Shown here piece by piece: positions 1 to 6,004 of a DNA stretch of 16,260 nt (positions are counted from its first letter, which is position 1; each line of letters opens with the position of its first letter). The stretch lies in UHGV virus genome UHGV-0143875; one strand, 5' to 3'. This DNA is from a virus. Under the pieces are notes generated by a model that worked only from the letters and a program-made list of their open reading frames with translations, made no database searches and was not told where the DNA came from. The translations under genes were made by a program, and so were the position numbers.

Positions 1-205
1 CTTCGGTATACGTTTTACCGAGCATGATGTCTTTTCCGGTGTGTCCGTGACATACGGTCCATACACCAACAATATCTTTGTATGGTATGTAGCTGACACC
101 CTCCAGACCATCGTTACCACTTGGGCCAGTGATTAGCACTGATGCTATAGCAATAGCCCCGCCACCAATAGCAGCTGCAACAGCTTTTCGTAATGATGGA
201 GGCAT
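1..205 (-). CDS. R: SAR endolysin (phage-21 R-type lysozyme), N-terminal portion only; gene continues beyond the window start
   Basis: Reverse-complement of 1-205 translates from ATG (203-205) as [61 protein letters not shown]..., a Gly/Ala-rich signal-anchor-release N-terminus followed by a lysozyme-like sequence. Its start overlaps the holin stop (TAATG). Matches phage 21 R from recall, not computed. Confidence 0.85.
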
Positions 206-420
206 TATTCACCTCTCGCAGCCTTTCTTCTGTCTTCTCTGATTTTGAAGTACAGATTTGTCAGATAGGTGAGAAAGCCCAACACAAGGCTTCCAAGCAC
301 TCCAATCGCAGCCCACTGTGATGGACTGACCTGATCCAACCACTGTAAAAACCAGTATCCCGCACTACCAGCGGATGTTCCGTAAGCAATGCCAGTTGAG
401 ATTTTGTCCATTGATTTCAT
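205..420 (-). CDS. S: Class II holin (pinholin, phage-21 S-type), 71 aa with dual-start motif
   Basis: ORF track 205..420: [71 protein letters not shown]. Two hydrophobic segments and a charged C-terminus; Met1-Lys-Ser-Met4 gives the holin/antiholin dual start; sits immediately upstream of the SAR endolysin. Confidence 0.9.
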
Positions 421-538
421 AGCAACGCCTCCGCCAGTAACGGATTGCGTAGTTCTTATATTGGGAAGGGGAAAAAAGAAGGCCGCAGCATAACTATCAC
501 TGATGAATTCAGAATAGCCAGTGGCTACGGCTCAGTAA

Positions 539-614
539 TGGTGCTGGTTAACGGACTTGAACCGCTACCCATTCGCTTACAAGGCGACTGCTCTACCATT
601 GGAGCTAAACCAGC
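539..614 (-). tRNA. tRNA gene, 76 nt, encoded CCA; predicted anticodon UGU (Thr)
   Basis: Minus-strand sequence GCTGGTT-TA-GCTC-CAATGGTA-GAGC-A-GTCGC-CTTGTAA-GCGAA-TGGGT-AGCGG-TTCAAGT-CCGTT-AACCAGC-A-CCA folds by hand into a cloverleaf: 7-bp acceptor stem, 4-bp D stem, TTCAAGT T-loop, U33 and A37 flanking UGU. The 27-43 pair is a G-A mismatch. Not run through tRNAscan. Confidence 0.7.
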
Positions 615-619
615 ATATT

Positions 620-694
620 TGGAGGGGCAGCGTGGACTCGAACCACGATAAGAAGGTTAACGGCCTTCCGTAATGACCTTTATACGACTGACCC
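620..694 (-). tRNA. tRNA-like element (atypical; possible Asn-GUU-like tRNA or pseudo-tRNA)
   Basis: Minus strand GGGTCAG-TC-...-GAAGG-CCGTTAA-CCTTC-TTAT-CGTGG-TTCGAGT-CCACG-CTGCCCC-T-CCA. Perfect T-arm (GGTTCGAGTCC), perfect 5-bp anticodon stem and encoded CCA, but C at position 33, one acceptor-stem mismatch and a poor D-arm. Lies 5 nt upstream of the other tRNA. Confidence 0.4.
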
Positions 695-740
695 AAATAA
701 AAAAAGCCACCGTTGCAACTTAAGAGTCACTAACGGCAGC
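695..740 (-). terminator. Intrinsic terminator after the late promoter (tR'-like)
   Basis: Minus strand GCUGCCGUU...AACGGUGGC stem (two G-U pairs) followed by UUUUUUUAUUU, about 20 nt downstream of the Q stop and just upstream of the tRNA-like genes. Confidence 0.5.
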
Positions 741-743
741 TTA

Positions 744-780
744 CCTTCTAATTATGGCTAAATGGATAATTGCATGTCAA
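744..780 (-). promoter_or_regulatory. Candidate late promoter pR' (and presumed qut region) overlapping the 3' end of Q
   Basis: Minus strand TTGACA (plus 775-780), 18-nt spacer, CATAAT (plus 751-756). Position at the Q 3' end matches the arrangement in 82/21-type Q modules. Promoter call is by eye only. Confidence 0.45.
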
Positions 781-1276
781 GACTTTTAACAGCAATATGT
801 TTAACTTTCTCAACACGTTTACGCATTTTGAAAGCATTTTGCATTGGTTGGTACAAAACAAATAATGATGCTTTCAGGATGTCGTCAATTTCATTTCTAC
901 AGGTTGCCAGTGAAGGTTTTCTCCATCCCTCGCCACCACGTCCACACATCTTGCGTGGCTTTGCAGTCGCGTGATAGTAGGATGCAATTGCTCGCTTAGA
1001 TGAACCATGAGCGTAGTAGCTGAGGAGGATGCCAAAGGCTTTCTTGTCAATGCACATGACGGAATCAACGACCTGAGAAATCAACATTCCATCATCATCA
1101 TTGCACATTGGCCTTGTCATAATTCTTCCCGGCTCTACGCTCTCCATGAACTTCGCTATTACGCTGCTCATGCGCTTTTCCAGACGACCTGAATAAACCC
1201 ATGCGCCCCACAGTTCAAGCCATCCATTCAGCCAATCGTGCTGTTCTTTGGTGAGGTTTAGTTCTCTTATACCCAT
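758..1276 (-). CDS. Q: Late-gene antitermination protein Q (non-lambda type)
   Basis: 172-aa ORF ([35 protein letters not shown]...MCNDDDGM...) in the Q position between the nin region and the lysis cassette; resembles Q proteins of lambdoid prophages from recall. ATG at 1274-1276 overlaps the NinI stop. Confidence 0.75.
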
Positions 1277-1938
1277 GCGACTTCTCCCTGTACCTGAATC
1301 AATGTGAGGTTTCCGCAGAACACTGCGCCGGTATCGATATACATCTGGTTGGCAAATTTGAGTGGTTTCACTGCTGGCGTATGACCAAAGATGAACGTGT
1401 CCGCGCCTTTGATTTCTTTCACGATCCCGTCTTGTGAGTTGCTGATTCGTTCGCGGTTCCAGATTATCTGCTGATGATCAACTGGCTTTCCGAACTCGTA
1501 TTCATCACAAGGATAATCGGCGTGGCAGATGACATATTTTTTATCTTTGCTCACCAGTTCGATGATTAACGGAAGTTCTTCTGCTTTATGGGCAAGAGCT
1601 TTAGCCAGAATTTCTTTGTCGTAATCGAGATTAAAGAACCAGCCACCGCCATCAAGCAGCCAGTGATTAACGTTTCCACGCTCTGATAAGCCATCAATCA
1701 TCATTTGCTCATGGTTTCCACGTACAGCTCTGAACCAGGGGAATGTGATTAATTCCAGACATTCGACGTTCTCTGTACCGCGATCAACCAAATCGCCCAC
1801 CGAGATAAGCAGGTCTTTTTTGTTGTCGAATCCAATCGTATCCAGTTTGTTCATCAGGTTCGTGTAGCATCCGTGCAGGTCGCCAGCTACCCAAATATTT
1901 CGGTATTTGCTGCCATCAATTCTTTCGTAGATATTCAT
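1267..1938 (-). CDS. ninI: Ser/Thr protein phosphatase (lambda NinI / ORF221 family, calcineurin-like metallophosphatase)
   Basis: 223 aa containing GDLHG, GDLVDRG and GNHE metallophosphatase motifs; near-identical by recall to lambda phosphatase ([43 protein letters not shown]...). Confidence 0.9.
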
Positions 1939-2549
1939 GCAGCCTCACTTCTGCTGTTTCGCAGTTTTTTAAGTTTCTGTTGATACTCCGCCTTGATGGT
2001 CTTGCACTCTTCGACAGTCCAGCGATGGCGGTTATGGTTTGATTCGATTTCCTCTACTGCTTCCTGCCCGATGCGGCTAATCAGTTCGACGCAATACGGA
2101 ACGAGATTTCCGCTTTTGTGCTGGTTGCACACCACGCATTGCTTGTGAATATTGCGTTCATCAAATCGGAGTTGAGGTGCCGCAGCAGTTGTCCGGTAAT
2201 GTCCGGCATCCCACTGAGCAGACGTGAGCGTTCCGCACGAGATACATGGTAAGTCGCGGTCTCTTTCTCTGATGAAGGCGTTTACGGCTTGTTGGGCTTG
2301 TTTAATCCAGTAACTGCGGGGCTTTAAGGCGAGTTTCCGAATCTTAAGTTTATCTTTCTGTTTCTGCTCCTCTCGTCGTCGTTTCTTCTCTGCTGCTTTT
2401 TCCGCTTTTTCGCGTTCTTTACTTCGTCGTTCGAGTGCTATCTTGGTTCCACACTCTGGAGAGCACCACCACTGATTAGCGAATGCAGGGTGAAACCATT
2501 CCCGGCATTCATCGTTTTTACATCGTCTTCGCGCTGGTTTAGCCATCAT
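1935..2549 (-). CDS. ninG: NinG (Rap-like recombination-promoting protein)
   Basis: 204 aa, Cys-rich with a basic coiled segment; matches lambda NinG by recall; ATGA overlap with ninI. Confidence 0.85.
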
Positions 2550-2733
2550 CTTCTTCCTCGTGCATCGAGCTATTCGGATCGCTCATCAGTTCTGCGCAGC
2601 AGTGCTCACACACGTGAACTTCCAGCACATGCAGCTTCTGACCGCAGTTAGCGCACGTTAAAGCTCGCTCGACGCTTTCTTGTTCGTAACTTCGATTTGT
2701 GTCAATCACCTTGTTTTCCTCATGCGGTTCCAT
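2539..2733 (-). CDS. ninF: NinF-like small zinc-ribbon protein
   Basis: Internal ATG at 2731-2733 of the long ORF 2539..3003 gives [64 protein letters not shown]; the C-terminal two thirds match lambda NinF by recall. The upstream part of the 154-aa ORF overlaps the next gene in another frame and is treated as non-coding. Confidence 0.6.
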
Positions 2734-2848
2734 TTGGCCTGTAACAGCCCGTAGACATAATCGAATGTCTTTACCTGGCTTTCTGTGGGGATTGGTTTCT
2801 TGCGGGATTTGGTGCGTTTGGTAGGAGTAAAAATCAGGTTGTCTAACG

Positions 2849-3022
2849 CTATTTGAGTAACGATTCGTCGCTGTCTCGCCATACGTCCTCCTTTTCCTGA
2901 GGTAGTGGTAACACCCCTGTTGGTGTTCTTTCACACCGGAGACACCATCGATTCCAGTAAGGTTGCCCGGGTCGAAAGCGATCGTCTTCCTTTCGCTCTC
3001 CACATCGATAACAGTGCTTCAT
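2849..3022 (-). CDS. 57-aa CxxC...CxxC zinc-ribbon protein (NinD/ORF57-like by size and position)
   Basis: Start moved to Met7 of ORF 2849..3040 ([34 protein letters not shown]...), giving an ATGA start/stop overlap with the upstream methyltransferase gene. Identity with lambda NinD is not verified. Confidence 0.5.
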
Positions 3023-3609
3023 GCGATCACCATTTTGCATGGTTTAATCGCCATGCCGGGAGCCAGTTCAAAATCGGAGTCGCACTGATTGCCCCACATA
3101 TCCCACCCGGTCACTTTGTCGCGGCTAAATAACTCACAGCGCGGCACGTCGCCAAGCAACTTAGCTAACATGTCTCTTACGATCGGTGGTTTTGCACTGT
3201 GCTCCATTCTCGGTGCGGTAAAGTGCTGGCATATTGAAGCGTCCATTCTCTCAGGCAACCGCCCTCGAACAGCAAACAAGCAATCCTCGCTATTTGCCCG
3301 GGTCATATGCCCCATTCCGATCGCACTGTTGCCTTTGTGCTTATTGGTTTTGTGCCAAGTAAAGCCTTTCATAGTCATCAACCTGAATCCCCACGCCTCA
3401 ATTACCTTTAGCGCTTCGGCTGGCTGTGTCGGCACCCACCACATCGCTAACAAGCAAGATTCTGGATCCGCTAAATCCCATACTGGCAGTCGGCAAATGT
3501 CCTGAACATTCATAACATCGTATTTATGTCCAGCACCGCGATTGCCATCGTTGGCTTTGTCGCGATATTGCCAAGGCGGATCTGCGTAAATAAGTCGGTA
3601 TTTGTTCAT
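3019..3609 (-). CDS. DNA N6-adenine methyltransferase, MT-A70/DPPW family (orphan, no restriction partner seen)
   Basis: 196 aa starting [15 protein letters not shown]...; the DPPW motif near the N-terminus is the catalytic signature of phage Dam-like adenine methyltransferases. Occupies the slot between ninB and ninD (the lambda ninC position). ATGA overlap with ninB. Confidence 0.8.
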
Positions 3610-4046
3610 GCAGCTTTATCTCCCCATCTCGCTTTCCACTCCAGAGCCAGTCGCGCTTCGTCTGACCACTTAACGCCACGTTCTGTACCGAATGCCTGTA
3701 TAAGCTCTAATAGCTCCGCAAATTCGCTTACACGCATCCTGCTGGTTGACTGGCCTATTACCACAAAGCCATTCCCGGCAAGGTTAGGAACAACGTCCTG
3801 CTGCTTTAATGCTGCGGTAAACACACACTTCCAGCTTTCTGCATCCAGCCAGCGACCATGCCATTCAACCTGACGAGAGACGTCACCAAGGCAAGCCCAA
3901 AGCTTTCGATTCTGGTCTAAGCTGCGGTTGCGTTCCTGAATGGTTACTACGATTGGTTTGGTTGGGTCTGGAAGGATTTGCTGTACTGCGTGAATAGCGT
4001 TTTGCTGATGTGCTGGAGATCGAATTTCAAAGGTTAGTTTTTTCAT
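3606..4046 (-). CDS. ninB: NinB (Orf family recombination mediator)
   Basis: From ATG at 4044-4046: MKKLTFEIRSPAHQQNAIHAVQQILPDPTKPIVVTIQERNRSLDQNRKLWACLG...; near-identical to lambda NinB/Orf by recall. The ORF-track start 18 nt upstream is probably a non-ATG artefact. Confidence 0.9.
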   Translation of the reverse strand: MKKLTFEIRSPAHQQNAIHAVQQILPDPTKPIVVTIQERNRSLDQNRKLWACLGDVSRQVEWHGRWLDAESWKCVFTAALKQQDVVPNLAGNGFVVIGQSTSRMRVSEFAELLELIQAFGTERGVKWSDEARLALEWKARWGDKAA

Positions 4047-4061
4047 GACTTCCCTCTCCCC

Positions 4062-4094
4062 CAAATAAAAAGGCCTGCGATTACCAGCAGGCCT
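4062..4094 (-). terminator. Intrinsic terminator tR2 (upstream of the nin region)
   Basis: Minus strand AGGCCTGCTGGTAATCGCAGGCCT (8-bp perfect stem) followed by TTTTTATTT, between ren and ninB, exactly where lambda tR2 lies. Confidence 0.8.
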
Positions 4095-4119
4095 GTTATT
4101 AGCTCAGTGATGTAGATGG

Positions 4120-4410
4120 TCATCTTTTAACTCCATATACCGCCAATACCCGTTTCATCGCGGCACTCTGGCGACACTCCTTAAAAATTAGGTTCGTGCT
4201 CATCTTTCCTTCCCGTTCTTCCTTGGTAGCAAACCGGTAATACACCGTTCGCCAGACCTTACCTTCGATAACCAGAAGACCTGCCCGTGCCATTTTAGCC
4301 GCGGCCTGATTTATGCTGGTTACTGTTGCGCCTGTTAGCGCGGCAACGTCCGGCGCACAGAAGCTATTATGCGTCCCCAGGTAATGAATAATTGCCTCTT
4401 TGCCCGTCAT
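4120..4410 (-). CDS. ren: Ren (Rex-exclusion escape protein)
   Basis: 96 aa MTGKEAIIHYLGTHNSFCAPDVAALTGATVTSINQAAAKMARAG...; matches lambda Ren by recall; positioned after P. Confidence 0.9.
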   Translation of the reverse strand: MTGKEAIIHYLGTHNSFCAPDVAALTGATVTSINQAAAKMARAGLLVIEGKVWRTVYYRFATKEEREGKMSTNLIFKECRQSAAMKRVLAVYGVKR

Positions 4411-5108
4411 ACACTTGCTCCTTTCAGTCCGAACTTAGCTTTGAGTTCTGCGATCTTCGCCAGAGCCTGTGCACGATTTAGAGGTCTACCGCCCATGACA
4501 GGAAGTTGTTTTACTGGTTCAGGGATCGCCTCACCACGGTTAATTCTCGCAGTCATATGGACAAGCTCATCTGCGGCCTTACGGCGTAATTCCGCATCAG
4601 TAAGCGCATTGGCCCGCATGTTCTGATACAGGTTGGTAACCAGCCAGTAGTGCGCGTTTGATTTCCACGGATAAGACTCCGCATCCGGATACAGGCCTCG
4701 CTTCCGGCAATACTCGTAAACCATATCAACCAGCTCGCTGACGTTTGGCAGTCCGGCGATAACGGATGCTTCTTCCCGGCACCATGCAACAAACTGCCCG
4801 GGTGATGGCAGAAATGGCCGATTCTGCCGACGGGCTACGCGCATTCCTGCGTTAACCTGTTCCATTGTGGTGATCCCGTTTTCCCGGAAAGCCAGAACCC
4901 ACTGGCGGCGGATTTCGTTCAGTTCGTTCTGGTCACGGTTAGCCAGACTCGCCGGGAAAGTTGCCAGTAACTGGCTGAACACACCGTTGATGATCTGCGC
5001 TACCTGCTGTACCTGCGGCTTTTCGTCGTACTGTTCCGGCATGTTGTTGGCGATCCTACGCATCTGCTCACGGTCAAAGTTAACCATCTGTGCGGCGATG
5101 TTTTTCAT
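4407..5108 (-). CDS. P: Replication protein P (DnaB helicase loader)
   Basis: 233 aa MKNIAAQMVNFDREQMRRIANNMPEQYDEKPQVQQVAQIINGVF...; lambda P by recall; overlaps O and ren at both ends. Confidence 0.95.
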   Translation of the reverse strand: MKNIAAQMVNFDREQMRRIANNMPEQYDEKPQVQQVAQIINGVFSQLLATFPASLANRDQNELNEIRRQWVLAFRENGITTMEQVNAGMRVARRQNRPFLPSPGQFVAWCREEASVIAGLPNVSELVDMVYEYCRKRGLYPDAESYPWKSNAHYWLVTNLYQNMRANALTDAELRRKAADELVHMTARINRGEAIPEPVKQLPVMGGRPLNRAQALAKIAELKAKFGLKGASV

Positions 5109-6004
5109 AGATCCACCCCGTAAATCCAGTCTGTGTTTGTCAGGTCGAGTTTTGGTTTGCTGGCTGTCACGACTGCCTGTTGCTTGTTACGGTTGATTTC
5201 GAGTTGGGTCCACTTGTCGCGGAGTTTGGCCGGACTTAGCACGTTACCGGACCAGAAGTTGTCCTGGCATGCCCAGCGGAACAGTACACACATGTCGCGG
5301 TGGTTACGTCCGTCACGTTCACGCATCAGGCGGATATCGTTAGCCCACCCTGCAAAATTCGGTTTTCTGGCTGATGGCGCGATGGTCTTCACCATGTCAA
5401 ACATCCACTCTGCGGCGGTCAGGTCTTCTGCTGTCCCCCACTTGCTGCCGCTCTGAATTGCAGCATCCGGTTTCACCACAGAAAGGTCGTTTTCTGGCTG
5501 GTCAGAGGATTCGCCAGAATTCTCTGACGAATAATCTTTTCTTTTTTCTTTTGTAATAGTGTCTTTTGTGTCCCCCTGTTTTGAGGGATAGCAATCCCCC
5601 AATTTGAGGGATGTTTTATCCCTCGTTTTAGGGGATTTTCCCTCGTTTTGAGGGATGCACCATTCTGAGATGTTTTTGTTTGGTCCAAACATGCCGCCTT
5701 GCTGCTTGATAATATTCATTCTGACGAGTTCTAACTTGGCTTCATTGCACCGTTTGACAGGTAACTTTGTAATCTCGCTAAGTTGAGAATCGGTGATTCT
5801 GTCCATTGGTTTATTCCACCCATAGGTTTTACGCAGAATGGCAAGCAGCACTTTAAACTGTCGCTTGGTCAGATCTGCGCCTGAATAAGCCTCAAGCAGC
5901 ATATTTGATAGTCTGGCGTAACCATCATCGAGATCTGCCACATTACGCTCCTGTCCGGCAAAGTTACCTCTGCCGAAGTTGAGTATTTTTGCTGTATTTG
6001 TCAT
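5105..6004 (-). CDS. O: Replication initiator protein O
   Basis: 299 aa MTNTAKILNFGRGNFAGQERNVADLDDGYARLSNMLLEAYSGADLTKRQF...; lambda O by recall; contains the origin iterons within its coding sequence. Confidence 0.95.
   Translation of the reverse strand: MTNTAKILNFGRGNFAGQERNVADLDDGYARLSNMLLEAYSGADLTKRQFKVLLAILRKTYGWNKPMDRITDSQLSEITKLPVKRCNEAKLELVRMNIIKQQGGMFGPNKNISEWCIPQNEGKSPKTRDKTSLKLGDCYPSKQGDTKDTITKEKRKDYSSENSGESSDQPENDLSVVKPDAAIQSGSKWGTAEDLTAAEWMFDMVKTIAPSARKPNFAGWANDIRLMRERDGRNHRDMCVLFRWACQDNFWSGNVLSPAKLRDKWTQLEINRNKQQAVVTASKPKLDLTNTDWIYGVDL
5537..5656. other. Origin of replication (ori-lambda type): four iterons plus adjacent A+T-rich region, inside O
   Basis: Four ~18-19-bp iterons of form TCCCTC-N6-GAGGGA at about 5571-5589, 5594-5612, 5618-5636 and 5639-5656, flanked at 5537-5570 by the A+T-rich tract ttttcttttttcttttgtaatagtgtcttttgtg. 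Confidence 0.9.

Follow-up and report, generated by a model that had tools for sequence, protein, structure and literature searches.

The window analyzed here, the whole 16,260-base stretch of the virus genome UHGV-0143875, contains exactly two tRNA genes detected by ARAGORN, both on the minus strand, which encode a tRNA-Asn with the anticodon GUU and a tRNA-Thr with the anticodon UGU and are transcribed in this order, separated by a 5-nt spacer. This Asn-Thr pair is an already known cassette of the late regions of lambdoid phages of the phage 21/Sf6 type. With a probability of about 0.6, it represents the anti-nuclease or spare-tRNA cassette of these late regions, the Asn member being a weakened allele in this genome. 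A sequence-only reading of the same DNA had proposed two adjacent tRNA elements at 539–614 and 620–694. ARAGORN and Rfam accept both at these coordinates (Table 1; the gathering score of RF00005 is 29 bits), ARAGORN rejecting neither and giving Thr(tgt) for the first, in agreement with the UGU anticodon that had been assigned to it.

The role of the Thr member follows a published case. The effector of P2-lambda interference, P2-OLD, is lethal because it cuts thrU, the only UGU-anticodon tRNA of the host, at CNG motifs that are paired within the anticodon stem (nucleotides 28–30 and 40–42), while tRNA-Thr(UGU) genes of phages rescue the cells (PMC12445682). The tRNA-Thr21 of phage 21 protects against P2-OLD and resists cleavage in vitro, having a shorter anticodon stem and the C28U/G42A changes, and for the related Thr6 the protection depends on the UGU anticodon (PMC12445682). 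The tRNA-Thr of the window is identical at 76 of 76 positions to the Thr genes of Sf6, of E. coli VCSW7 and of phage 21 (tRNA-Thr21, as given in the GenBank record of this phage). Its anticodon arm, GUCGC/CUUGUAA/GCGAA, contains the G27·A43 mismatch and the U28-A42 pair as described for Thr21 (PMC12445682).

The charging identity elements G1-C72, C2-G71, G35 and U36 are kept in this tRNA, the two acceptor pairs being the acceptor determinants of threonyl-tRNA synthetase, and a compensatory change from G5-C68 to U5-A68 is found in five loci of the Thr family. All universal nucleotides are present except A14, the near-invariant partner of U8 in tRNAs, which is replaced by C14 in the window and by C or U in the family. 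The identical gene of phage 21 works in published assays despite C14; AriB, the nuclease discussed below, is reported to touch the D-loop, and C14 may bear on nuclease evasion. Chimeric tRNA-Thr genes occur in nine loci from IMG/VR (L009 and eight others), in which nucleotides 1–26 of the phage type are joined to a thrU-like 3′ part. In eight of the nine the 3′ strand of the anticodon stem is UCAUC, which leaves only three pairs and breaks the CAG triplet, and these genes may have reached a shortened stem with an altered motif by an independent route.

The Asn member shares its anticodon with a host tRNA that is likewise a nuclease substrate. Host tRNA-Asn(GUU) is also cleaved by P2-OLD, although more slowly (PMC12445682). 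AriB of the PARIS system cleaves the host tRNAs Lys(UUU), Thr(UGU) and, as a secondary target, Asn(GUU) between positions 40 and 41 of the sequence U36-A-A-U-C/N, where the slash marks the cut, and changes at positions 39 and 41 block this cleavage (PMC12409363). The UGU and GUU anticodons of the cassette are therefore those of host tRNAs that are targeted by both AriB and P2-OLD.

The host and phage tRNAs have identical anticodon loops (CUUGUAA in thrU and the phage tRNA-Thr, CUGUUAA in asnT and the consensus phage tRNA-Asn), whereas their anticodon stems differ at every nuclease-relevant position and their acceptor stems differ as well. At positions 27–31/39–43, thrU reads ACUGA/UCAGU and the phage tRNA-Thr GUCGC/GCGAA, with G27·A43, U28-A42, G39, G41 and no in-register CNG. 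The corresponding arms are GCGGA/UCCGU in asnT and GAAGG/CCUUC in the phage tRNA-Asn, the latter with C39, U41 and no CNG on either strand. Thus, U39 and both CNG triplets are lost in both phage tRNAs, where positions 28–30/40–42 are UCG/CGA (Thr) and AAG/CUU (Asn).

A mechanism can be proposed from these data and from the layout of the locus, in which both tRNA genes lie behind the late-leader terminator tR′. The cassette would be transcribed from the promoter PR′ mainly when Q drives read-through of tR′, since the genes directly follow this terminator, and the tRNAs would then be excised from the leader of the late transcript by host tRNA-processing enzymes. The tRNA-Thr would serve as a nuclease-resistant substitute for thrU, the role published for the identical Thr21, keeping ACA codons readable when thrU is destroyed by P2-OLD and, by inference, by AriB; it may also top up the decoding of ACA-rich phage genes. 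The tRNA-Asn of the family is most likely the same kind of spare, because AriB and P2-OLD both attack host tRNA-Asn(GUU) as a secondary target, and neither recognition motif is present in the phage tRNA. Two divergent Asn(GUU) alleles that also pair with the same Thr gene favor this interpretation. In the Asn allele of the window, U33C, U69C and G73U would remove the determinant of asparaginyl-tRNA synthetase (AsnRS) and the U-turn uridine, and would favor a competing helix in silico.

The tRNA-Asn of the window is identical to those of phage 21 and Sf6 at 72 of 75 positions, the three changes just named being the only differences. The sequence-only reading had listed C33, an acceptor mismatch, a weak D-arm, a perfect T-arm and a CCA end for this element, and each of these is present: the anticodon loop is C32-C33-G34-U35-U36-A37-A38, the acceptor stem contains U4·C69, the D-stem has three pairs and U13·U22, the T-arm is CGUGG/CCACG with the loop UUCGAGU, and CCA is encoded. 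The discriminator U73, which is G73 in phage 21 and Sf6, had been overlooked. All universal tRNA nucleotides are present except U33, which the consensus allele possesses.

These features are not all peculiar to this lineage. Covariation was assessed on 15 distinct Asn alleles and 21 pairs, with 500 shuffles and slid-register controls. In the cloverleaf register 90.4% of the cells are paired and two-sided changes occur in 8 of the 21 pairs, which none of the 500 shuffles reaches; every slid register performs much more poorly. Of the 15 alleles, 13 have a non-standard 4:69 pair (U·U in the consensus), and 13:22 is never a standard pair. As both are family-wide and persist while other pairs co-vary, the 4:69 mismatch and U13·U22 are not signs of decay. 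The earlier suggestion of decay consequently stands for C33, which together with the previously unnoted U73 and C69 is private to one lineage, but not for the acceptor mismatch and the D-arm; likewise, a decaying tRNA is the best of the three options offered for the window allele but does not describe the gene family, and a tRNA-derived regulatory RNA finds no support.

The divergent Asn(GUU) alleles found beside the same Thr gene are of two types (L140/L142 and L145/L146/L148). One shows compensatory changes at 6:67, 7:66 and 28:42, while the other has wholly different D, anticodon and T arms and shares the acceptor stem. All of the divergent alleles keep U4·U69 and G73, suggesting that the mismatch is selected. 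The D-arm of the phage tRNA-Asn (UCGUAUAAAGGUCAUUAC) matches the D-arm of glyT, the tRNA-Gly(UCC) gene of E. coli, at 15 of 18 nucleotides, U13·U22 included. In two viral contigs (represented by L040) the 5′ part of the Asn gene is joined to a glyT-like 3′ end, and in another locus (L147) the place of the Asn gene is taken by a tRNA-Gly resembling glyT. These observations hint at an origin of the phage Asn gene from a gene of the tRNA-Gly(UCC) type, or at recombination with one.

The two private changes affect positions of known importance. U33 is the near-universal base of the U-turn, and U33-G34-U35 is the determinant of the tRNA-guanine transglycosylase Tgt. The identity set of E. coli tRNA-Asn consists of G73 and the anticodon (PMC9976931, citing Li, Pelka and Schulman 1993). 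With U33C and G73U, the window allele therefore loses the U-turn uridine and the discriminator determinant for AsnRS; of the charging elements it keeps the anticodon, while the consensus allele has both. In two-dimensional folding of the isolated, unmodified 75-mer, C33 yields a competing helix, C25-G26-G27/C32-C33-G34, with a probability of 0.95, and the anticodon stem, predicted with a probability of 0.68 in its absence, drops to 0.05. The window tRNA-Asn is thus probably a weakened allele heading to decay and not a new kind of RNA. A switch of identity to Gly or Cys through U73 was considered and rejected: glycyl-tRNA synthetase requires C2-G71 with C35/C36 and cysteinyl-tRNA synthetase the GCA anticodon, and these are absent.

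Among about 140 further copies gathered from IMG/VR contigs, the commonest Asn allele is that of phage 21 and Sf6 (98 copies). C69/U73 with U33 is represented by four copies (E. coli VCSW7 and three viral contigs), C69 with G73 by one, and C33 occurs in a single viral contig (L125), which is 99.908% identical to positions 1–5429 of the window and differs at about five positions. The C33 allele is missing from all 5,426 complete E. coli genomes, the best match being 98.8% in three genomes, and C69/U73 is found in 3 of the 364 genomes that have the tRNA-Asn. A metagenome scan with a 26-nt C33 pattern found nothing, and six genome-contig matches to the C33 anticodon arm were dismissed as chance matches, coming from unrelated metagenome-assembled genomes or Paenibacillus and being devoid of tRNA context. 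The Rfam scores fall along the series, from 55.3 bits for the consensus to 53.6 for C69/U73 and 48.8 for the window. The comparison of these sequences indicates that the changes built up stepwise in one shallow lineage, C69 appearing first, then U73 and then C33. Other, isolated lesions of the Asn gene occur as singletons: A33, U35A (which ARAGORN then calls tRNA-Ile), a 1-nt deletion in the stem and mismatches in the T-stem. Such a pattern is expected of mutation-selection balance in prophages.

Several observations weigh against the interpretation as an anti-nuclease cassette with a weakened Asn member. In the literature searched there is no published experiment on the tRNA-Asn of this family, nor on resistance of the cassette's tRNAs to AriB. 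The phage tRNA-Asn retains a full 5-bp anticodon stem and C40, and thrU needed both the CNG change and the shortening of the stem to become resistant to OLD (PMC12445682). The cassette has no tRNA-Lys(UUU), the prime target of AriB, and the tRNA-Lys of T5 is required for bypassing PARIS (PMC12409363), so the cassette alone is unlikely to neutralize the PARIS system of strain B185. The window encodes a Mu-Gam-like protein and RecT and not lambda Gam, the known trigger of OLD; Gam and Ral are both encoded by the closely related VCSW7 prophage, which has this cassette as well. Being located behind tR′, the tRNAs are made late, and nucleases of this kind may be triggered early. C33 is known from just two nearly identical sequences, and the verdict that the Asn allele is weakened draws on identity rules and two-dimensional folding. 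As host thrU and asnT likewise fail to fold as a cloverleaf in silico, the folding result for C33 is only suggestive, and tRNAs with C33 function in some systems. Finally, ACA is enriched in the phage genes, which keeps plain codon supply alive as a non-exclusive role of the Thr member.

Codon supplementation alone, in which the tRNAs boost the decoders of codons preferred by the phage with no link to defense, is a less probable explanation, though one to be taken seriously. Similar proposals were made for this cassette in SfI and for ileZ/argN/argO of Stx phages, thrU is the sole UGU-anticodon tRNA of E. coli, and related cassettes also include Arg(UCU) and a tRNA with the anticodon CAU, reading the rare AGA and possibly AUA. 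ACA codons make up 15.8 per 1000 and 31% of the Thr codons in the open reading frames of the window, 11.3 per 1000 and 26.7% in the early genes of the VCSW7 prophage, 10.5 per 1000 and 14.7% in its late and lysis genes, and 6.0 per 1000 and 11% in 33 core genes of K-12. The latter served as the host baseline, as eight genes near asnT are unrepresentative (ACA 11–19 per 1000). The values reported for SfI and its host are 17.3 and 7.1 (PMC3636060). The enrichment extends to both the window and the related prophage, but it peaks in the early genes, which are translated before the tR′-gated tRNA is available, and is weakest in the late genes of VCSW7. The Asn codons, at 45.7, 45.5, 34.8 and 34.3 per 1000 in the same four gene sets, correspondingly, leave the tRNA-Asn unexplained, since the late genes do not differ from the host; at least three asn genes lie in the part of K-12 that was examined, and a bias for Asn was not found in SfI either (PMC3636060). 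Codon supply also does not predict that host and phage tRNAs differ precisely at the positions recognized by the nucleases, and it does not account for the published OLD resistance of Thr21.

Two further explanations concern the Asn allele. The C33/U73 form could be adaptive, acting as an uncharged decoy for a tRNA nuclease, as a decoder that escapes an anticodon-loop nuclease, or as a means of avoiding queuosine, the insertion of which by Tgt requires U33-G34-U35. The stepwise accumulation of C69, U73 and C33 in one lineage, the functionally loaded, non-random positions of the substitutions and the otherwise intact T-arm and anticodon are compatible with this idea. It is nevertheless improbable, as C33 is confined to two near-identical sequences with no occurrence in the 5,426 E. 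coli genomes, C69/U73 is present in only 3 of 364, comparable isolated lesions occur as singletons, which fits mutation-selection balance, and the carriers are too few for any test of selection. Escape from a nuclease of the colicin E5 type was rejected as a reason for C33: colicin E5 needs only a pyrimidine at position 33, and C33 is still a pyrimidine. The broader proposal that a working, non-canonical C33/C69/U73 allele, possibly uncharged or free of queuosine, serves as a decoy or escape form, with the cassette as a matched countermeasure to the shared targets of P2-OLD and AriB, has a similarly small chance of being correct. Even more doubtful is that 620–694 is not a tRNA in vivo but a segment of a longer structured RNA, a leader or a regulatory one, or that C33 is a sequencing or assembly error. 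The minimum free energy fold of the isolated C33 75-mer is indeed not a cloverleaf, and conserved hairpins flank the cassette on both sides; yet the covariance model still gives 48.8 bits, covariation backs the cloverleaf and no other register, and thrU and asnT of the host also misfold in silico. A single read error is not the source of C33, which is shared by two sequences with about 5 differences over 5,429 positions.

Since the cassette is widely annotated and the function of its Thr member published, its presence in the window adds nothing new in itself. The analysis instead corrects the earlier reading, in that two of the traits regarded as atypical occur throughout the family and are under selection, the private ones of this lineage being C33 and U73 only. 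The tRNA-Asn was described as having a significance that "is not clear" (PMC3636060). Of the three main targets of AriB, two are Thr(UGU) and Asn(GUU), and P2-OLD accepts both as substrates; with both phage tRNAs altered at the very positions of recognition, this leads to a testable prediction for the tRNA-Asn; its action as a rescue tRNA, if true, would extend the known work. The natural series U33/G73, C69/U73 and C33/C69/U73 is a ready set for asking how far a rescue tRNA tolerates the loss of identity and U-turn elements.

The cassette is a conserved module placed among differing Q and lysis alleles. Querying with 501 bases around the site retrieves 98 phage records, a large share of them annotated with antitermination protein Q, tRNA-Thr and tRNA-Asn (Sf6, phage 21, BTP1, SPN9CC, Oslo and Bas106 among them). 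In the Sf6 record both tRNA genes are marked as similar to phage 21, with PR′, qut and tR′ directly upstream. The pair was described in SfI and noted in Sf6, ST64T, PS3 and p21 (PMC3636060), and the tRNA-Asn is found in 364 of the 5,426 complete E. coli genomes (~7%). Across 93 haplotypes the nucleotide diversity is 0.009 for Asn and 0.014 for Thr, values somewhat lowered because the search patterns fixed part of each anticodon arm, as opposed to 0.25 over 150 nt upstream and 0.20 over 130 nt downstream. The conserved block extends from ~704 to ~476 (in 10-nt bins) and includes the hairpin that follows the tRNA-Thr.

When copies are ascertained through the Thr gene, the standard Asn gene lies upstream in 109 of 125, and the other 16 fall into three groups. 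The first has a divergent Asn(GUU) upstream (L140 and the L145 type) or an Asn gene damaged in its anticodon arm (L138, L141, L144), one further copy (L150) being too near the contig end to judge. The second comprises larger cassettes with another tRNA directly upstream, such as Asn-Phe-Thr-Arg(UCU) and Ser(GCU)-Thr-Arg(UCU)-Met(CAU), and the third a single copy in a Met(CAU)-Arg(UCU)-Gly(UCC)-Thr cassette. Loci where the Thr gene is found in other cassettes or beside an Asn lesion include L136, L139, L147 and L138, and one Asn gene of the variant cassettes has U35A and is called tRNA-Ile(GAU). Ser(GCU) and Thr tRNAs are listed among the targets of HepS (PMC13043305).

The features surrounding the pair are collected in Table 1. 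As had been proposed, the pair is located between Q with its terminator and the lysis genes, and the Q21-type gene, the tR′ hairpin and the pinholin gene could all be placed. Homologs of the Q21-type gene carry the Q annotation in Sf6, phage 21 and BTP1, and the Sf6 record has PR′ annotated at the position equivalent to the PR′-like promoter of the window. The U-tract of tR′ stops 3 nt short of G1 of the tRNA-Asn. Hairpin and U-tract are base-for-base the same as the terminator of phage 21 (PMID 1704887 in the phage 21 record), and one T fewer in the U-tract is the sole difference from the terminator of Sf6. A simple terminator scan of positions 1–1400 gave no terminator-like site; it misses tR′ because it permits short loops only, and tR′ is established by folding and by its identity to the annotated terminator of phage 21. 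The pinholin, the first downstream lysis gene, equals S21-71 of the phage 21 record in length and position. Beyond this segment, the window consists of a lambdoid early region that encodes NinI, NinG, a DNA methyltransferase, NinB, P and O, as well as an N-like protein, RecT, a Mu-Gam-like protein and an integrase.

Table 1. Features of the late-region segment of the window, with the evidence for each.
Feature	Position	Strand	Evidence
S21-type pinholin/antiholin gene, 71 aa, first downstream lysis gene	205..420	-	PHROG holin families, E 2.8e-35
Conserved hairpin 531-482, then CUUCUUUUUU (481-472)	472..531	-	fold -24.8 kcal/mol, z -4.0
tRNA-Thr(UGU)	539..614	-	ARAGORN (tgt); Rfam RF00005 61.5 bits
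Spacer AAAUA, 5 nt, between tRNA-Asn and tRNA-Thr	615..619	-	sequence and alignment
tRNA-Asn(GUU), rare C33/C69/U73 allele	620..694	-	ARAGORN; Rfam RF00005 48.8 bits
tR′ late-leader terminator, hairpin 742-704 and U-tract	695..742	-	fold -20.2 kcal/mol, z -4.64
PR′-like late promoter, TTGACA / 18-nt spacer / CATAAT	751..780	-	consensus scan, 11/12 matches
Q21-type late antiterminator gene, 172 aa	758..1276	-	PHROG 943 'anti-termination protein Q-like', E 1.8e-92

The same Asn-Thr pair is present in phage 21 (GenBank OL657228), Sf6 (AF547987), SfI, BTP1 and SPN9CC. Phage 21 and Sf6 share with the window the order Q, PR′, tR′, Asn, 5 nt, Thr and holin, and phage 21 also the pinholin context. Unlike these two phages, which have U33, U69 and G73, the window has C33, C69 and U73 in its tRNA-Asn, and its early region, with the Mu-Gam-like protein, RecT and DNA methyltransferase, is a different mosaic.

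The Thr and Asn variants of T5 have the same anticodons as those of the window and are similar to them in that the A31-U39 pair is changed to a G/C pair, position 41 is altered and the UAAU-C/N site is lost. The Thr arm of T5, GUUGC/GCAUC, resembles GUCGC/GCGAA of the window, although the tRNA genes are not homologous overall. T5 is a virulent phage with ~24 tRNAs, including the essential Lys variant, whereas the lambdoid cassette has no tRNA-Lys and lies behind a Q-controlled terminator.

The sequence-only reading had likened the position of the pair to the way tRNA genes are placed in Stx phages, and the location in the leader of the late operon downstream of Q is indeed common to both. In Stx phages of the 933W type, the ileZ-argN-argO tRNAs downstream of Q read the rare codons AUA, AGA and AGG and are followed by the toxin genes. 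The likeness is limited to the position, as the specificities in the window are Asn and Thr and, as that reading had also noted, no toxin genes follow the tRNA pair.

The hairpin at 531–482 starts 7 nt past the tRNA-Thr. It forms part of the conserved mobile block, lying at its 3′ edge, and shows conservation in the family, with a nucleotide diversity of 0.03–0.08 as opposed to ~0.35 farther downstream. Together with CUUCUUUUUU it resembles a terminator, and it carries no annotation in the phage 21 record. The U-run occurs only in the context of the S21 holin, while most members of the family, which have other lysis modules, contain CUUCUACACAUG in its place. A second terminator insulating the cassette was therefore rejected as a general trait, the U-run being missing in most relatives, and the hairpin may serve in processing or stability, or be what is left of a terminator.

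Many E. coli O157:H7 genomes match the query sequence at positions 18–90 only, that is, tR′ and the first ~24 nt of the tRNA-Asn (for example, NC_011353.1 2697977-2698049, where no feature is annotated). These partial matches look like truncated remnants of the cassette.

The closest complete relative with C69/U73 is the lambda-like prophage of E. coli VCSW7 that encodes Gam and Ral (L134; NZ_CP082357.1 2835000-2884000). Its major capsid gene is interrupted by an inserted element of ~11 kb, which has genes for an integrase, a primase and an Icd-like protein, capsid and decoration genes of its own and a gene for an 'abortive infection family protein', and which looks like a phage satellite.

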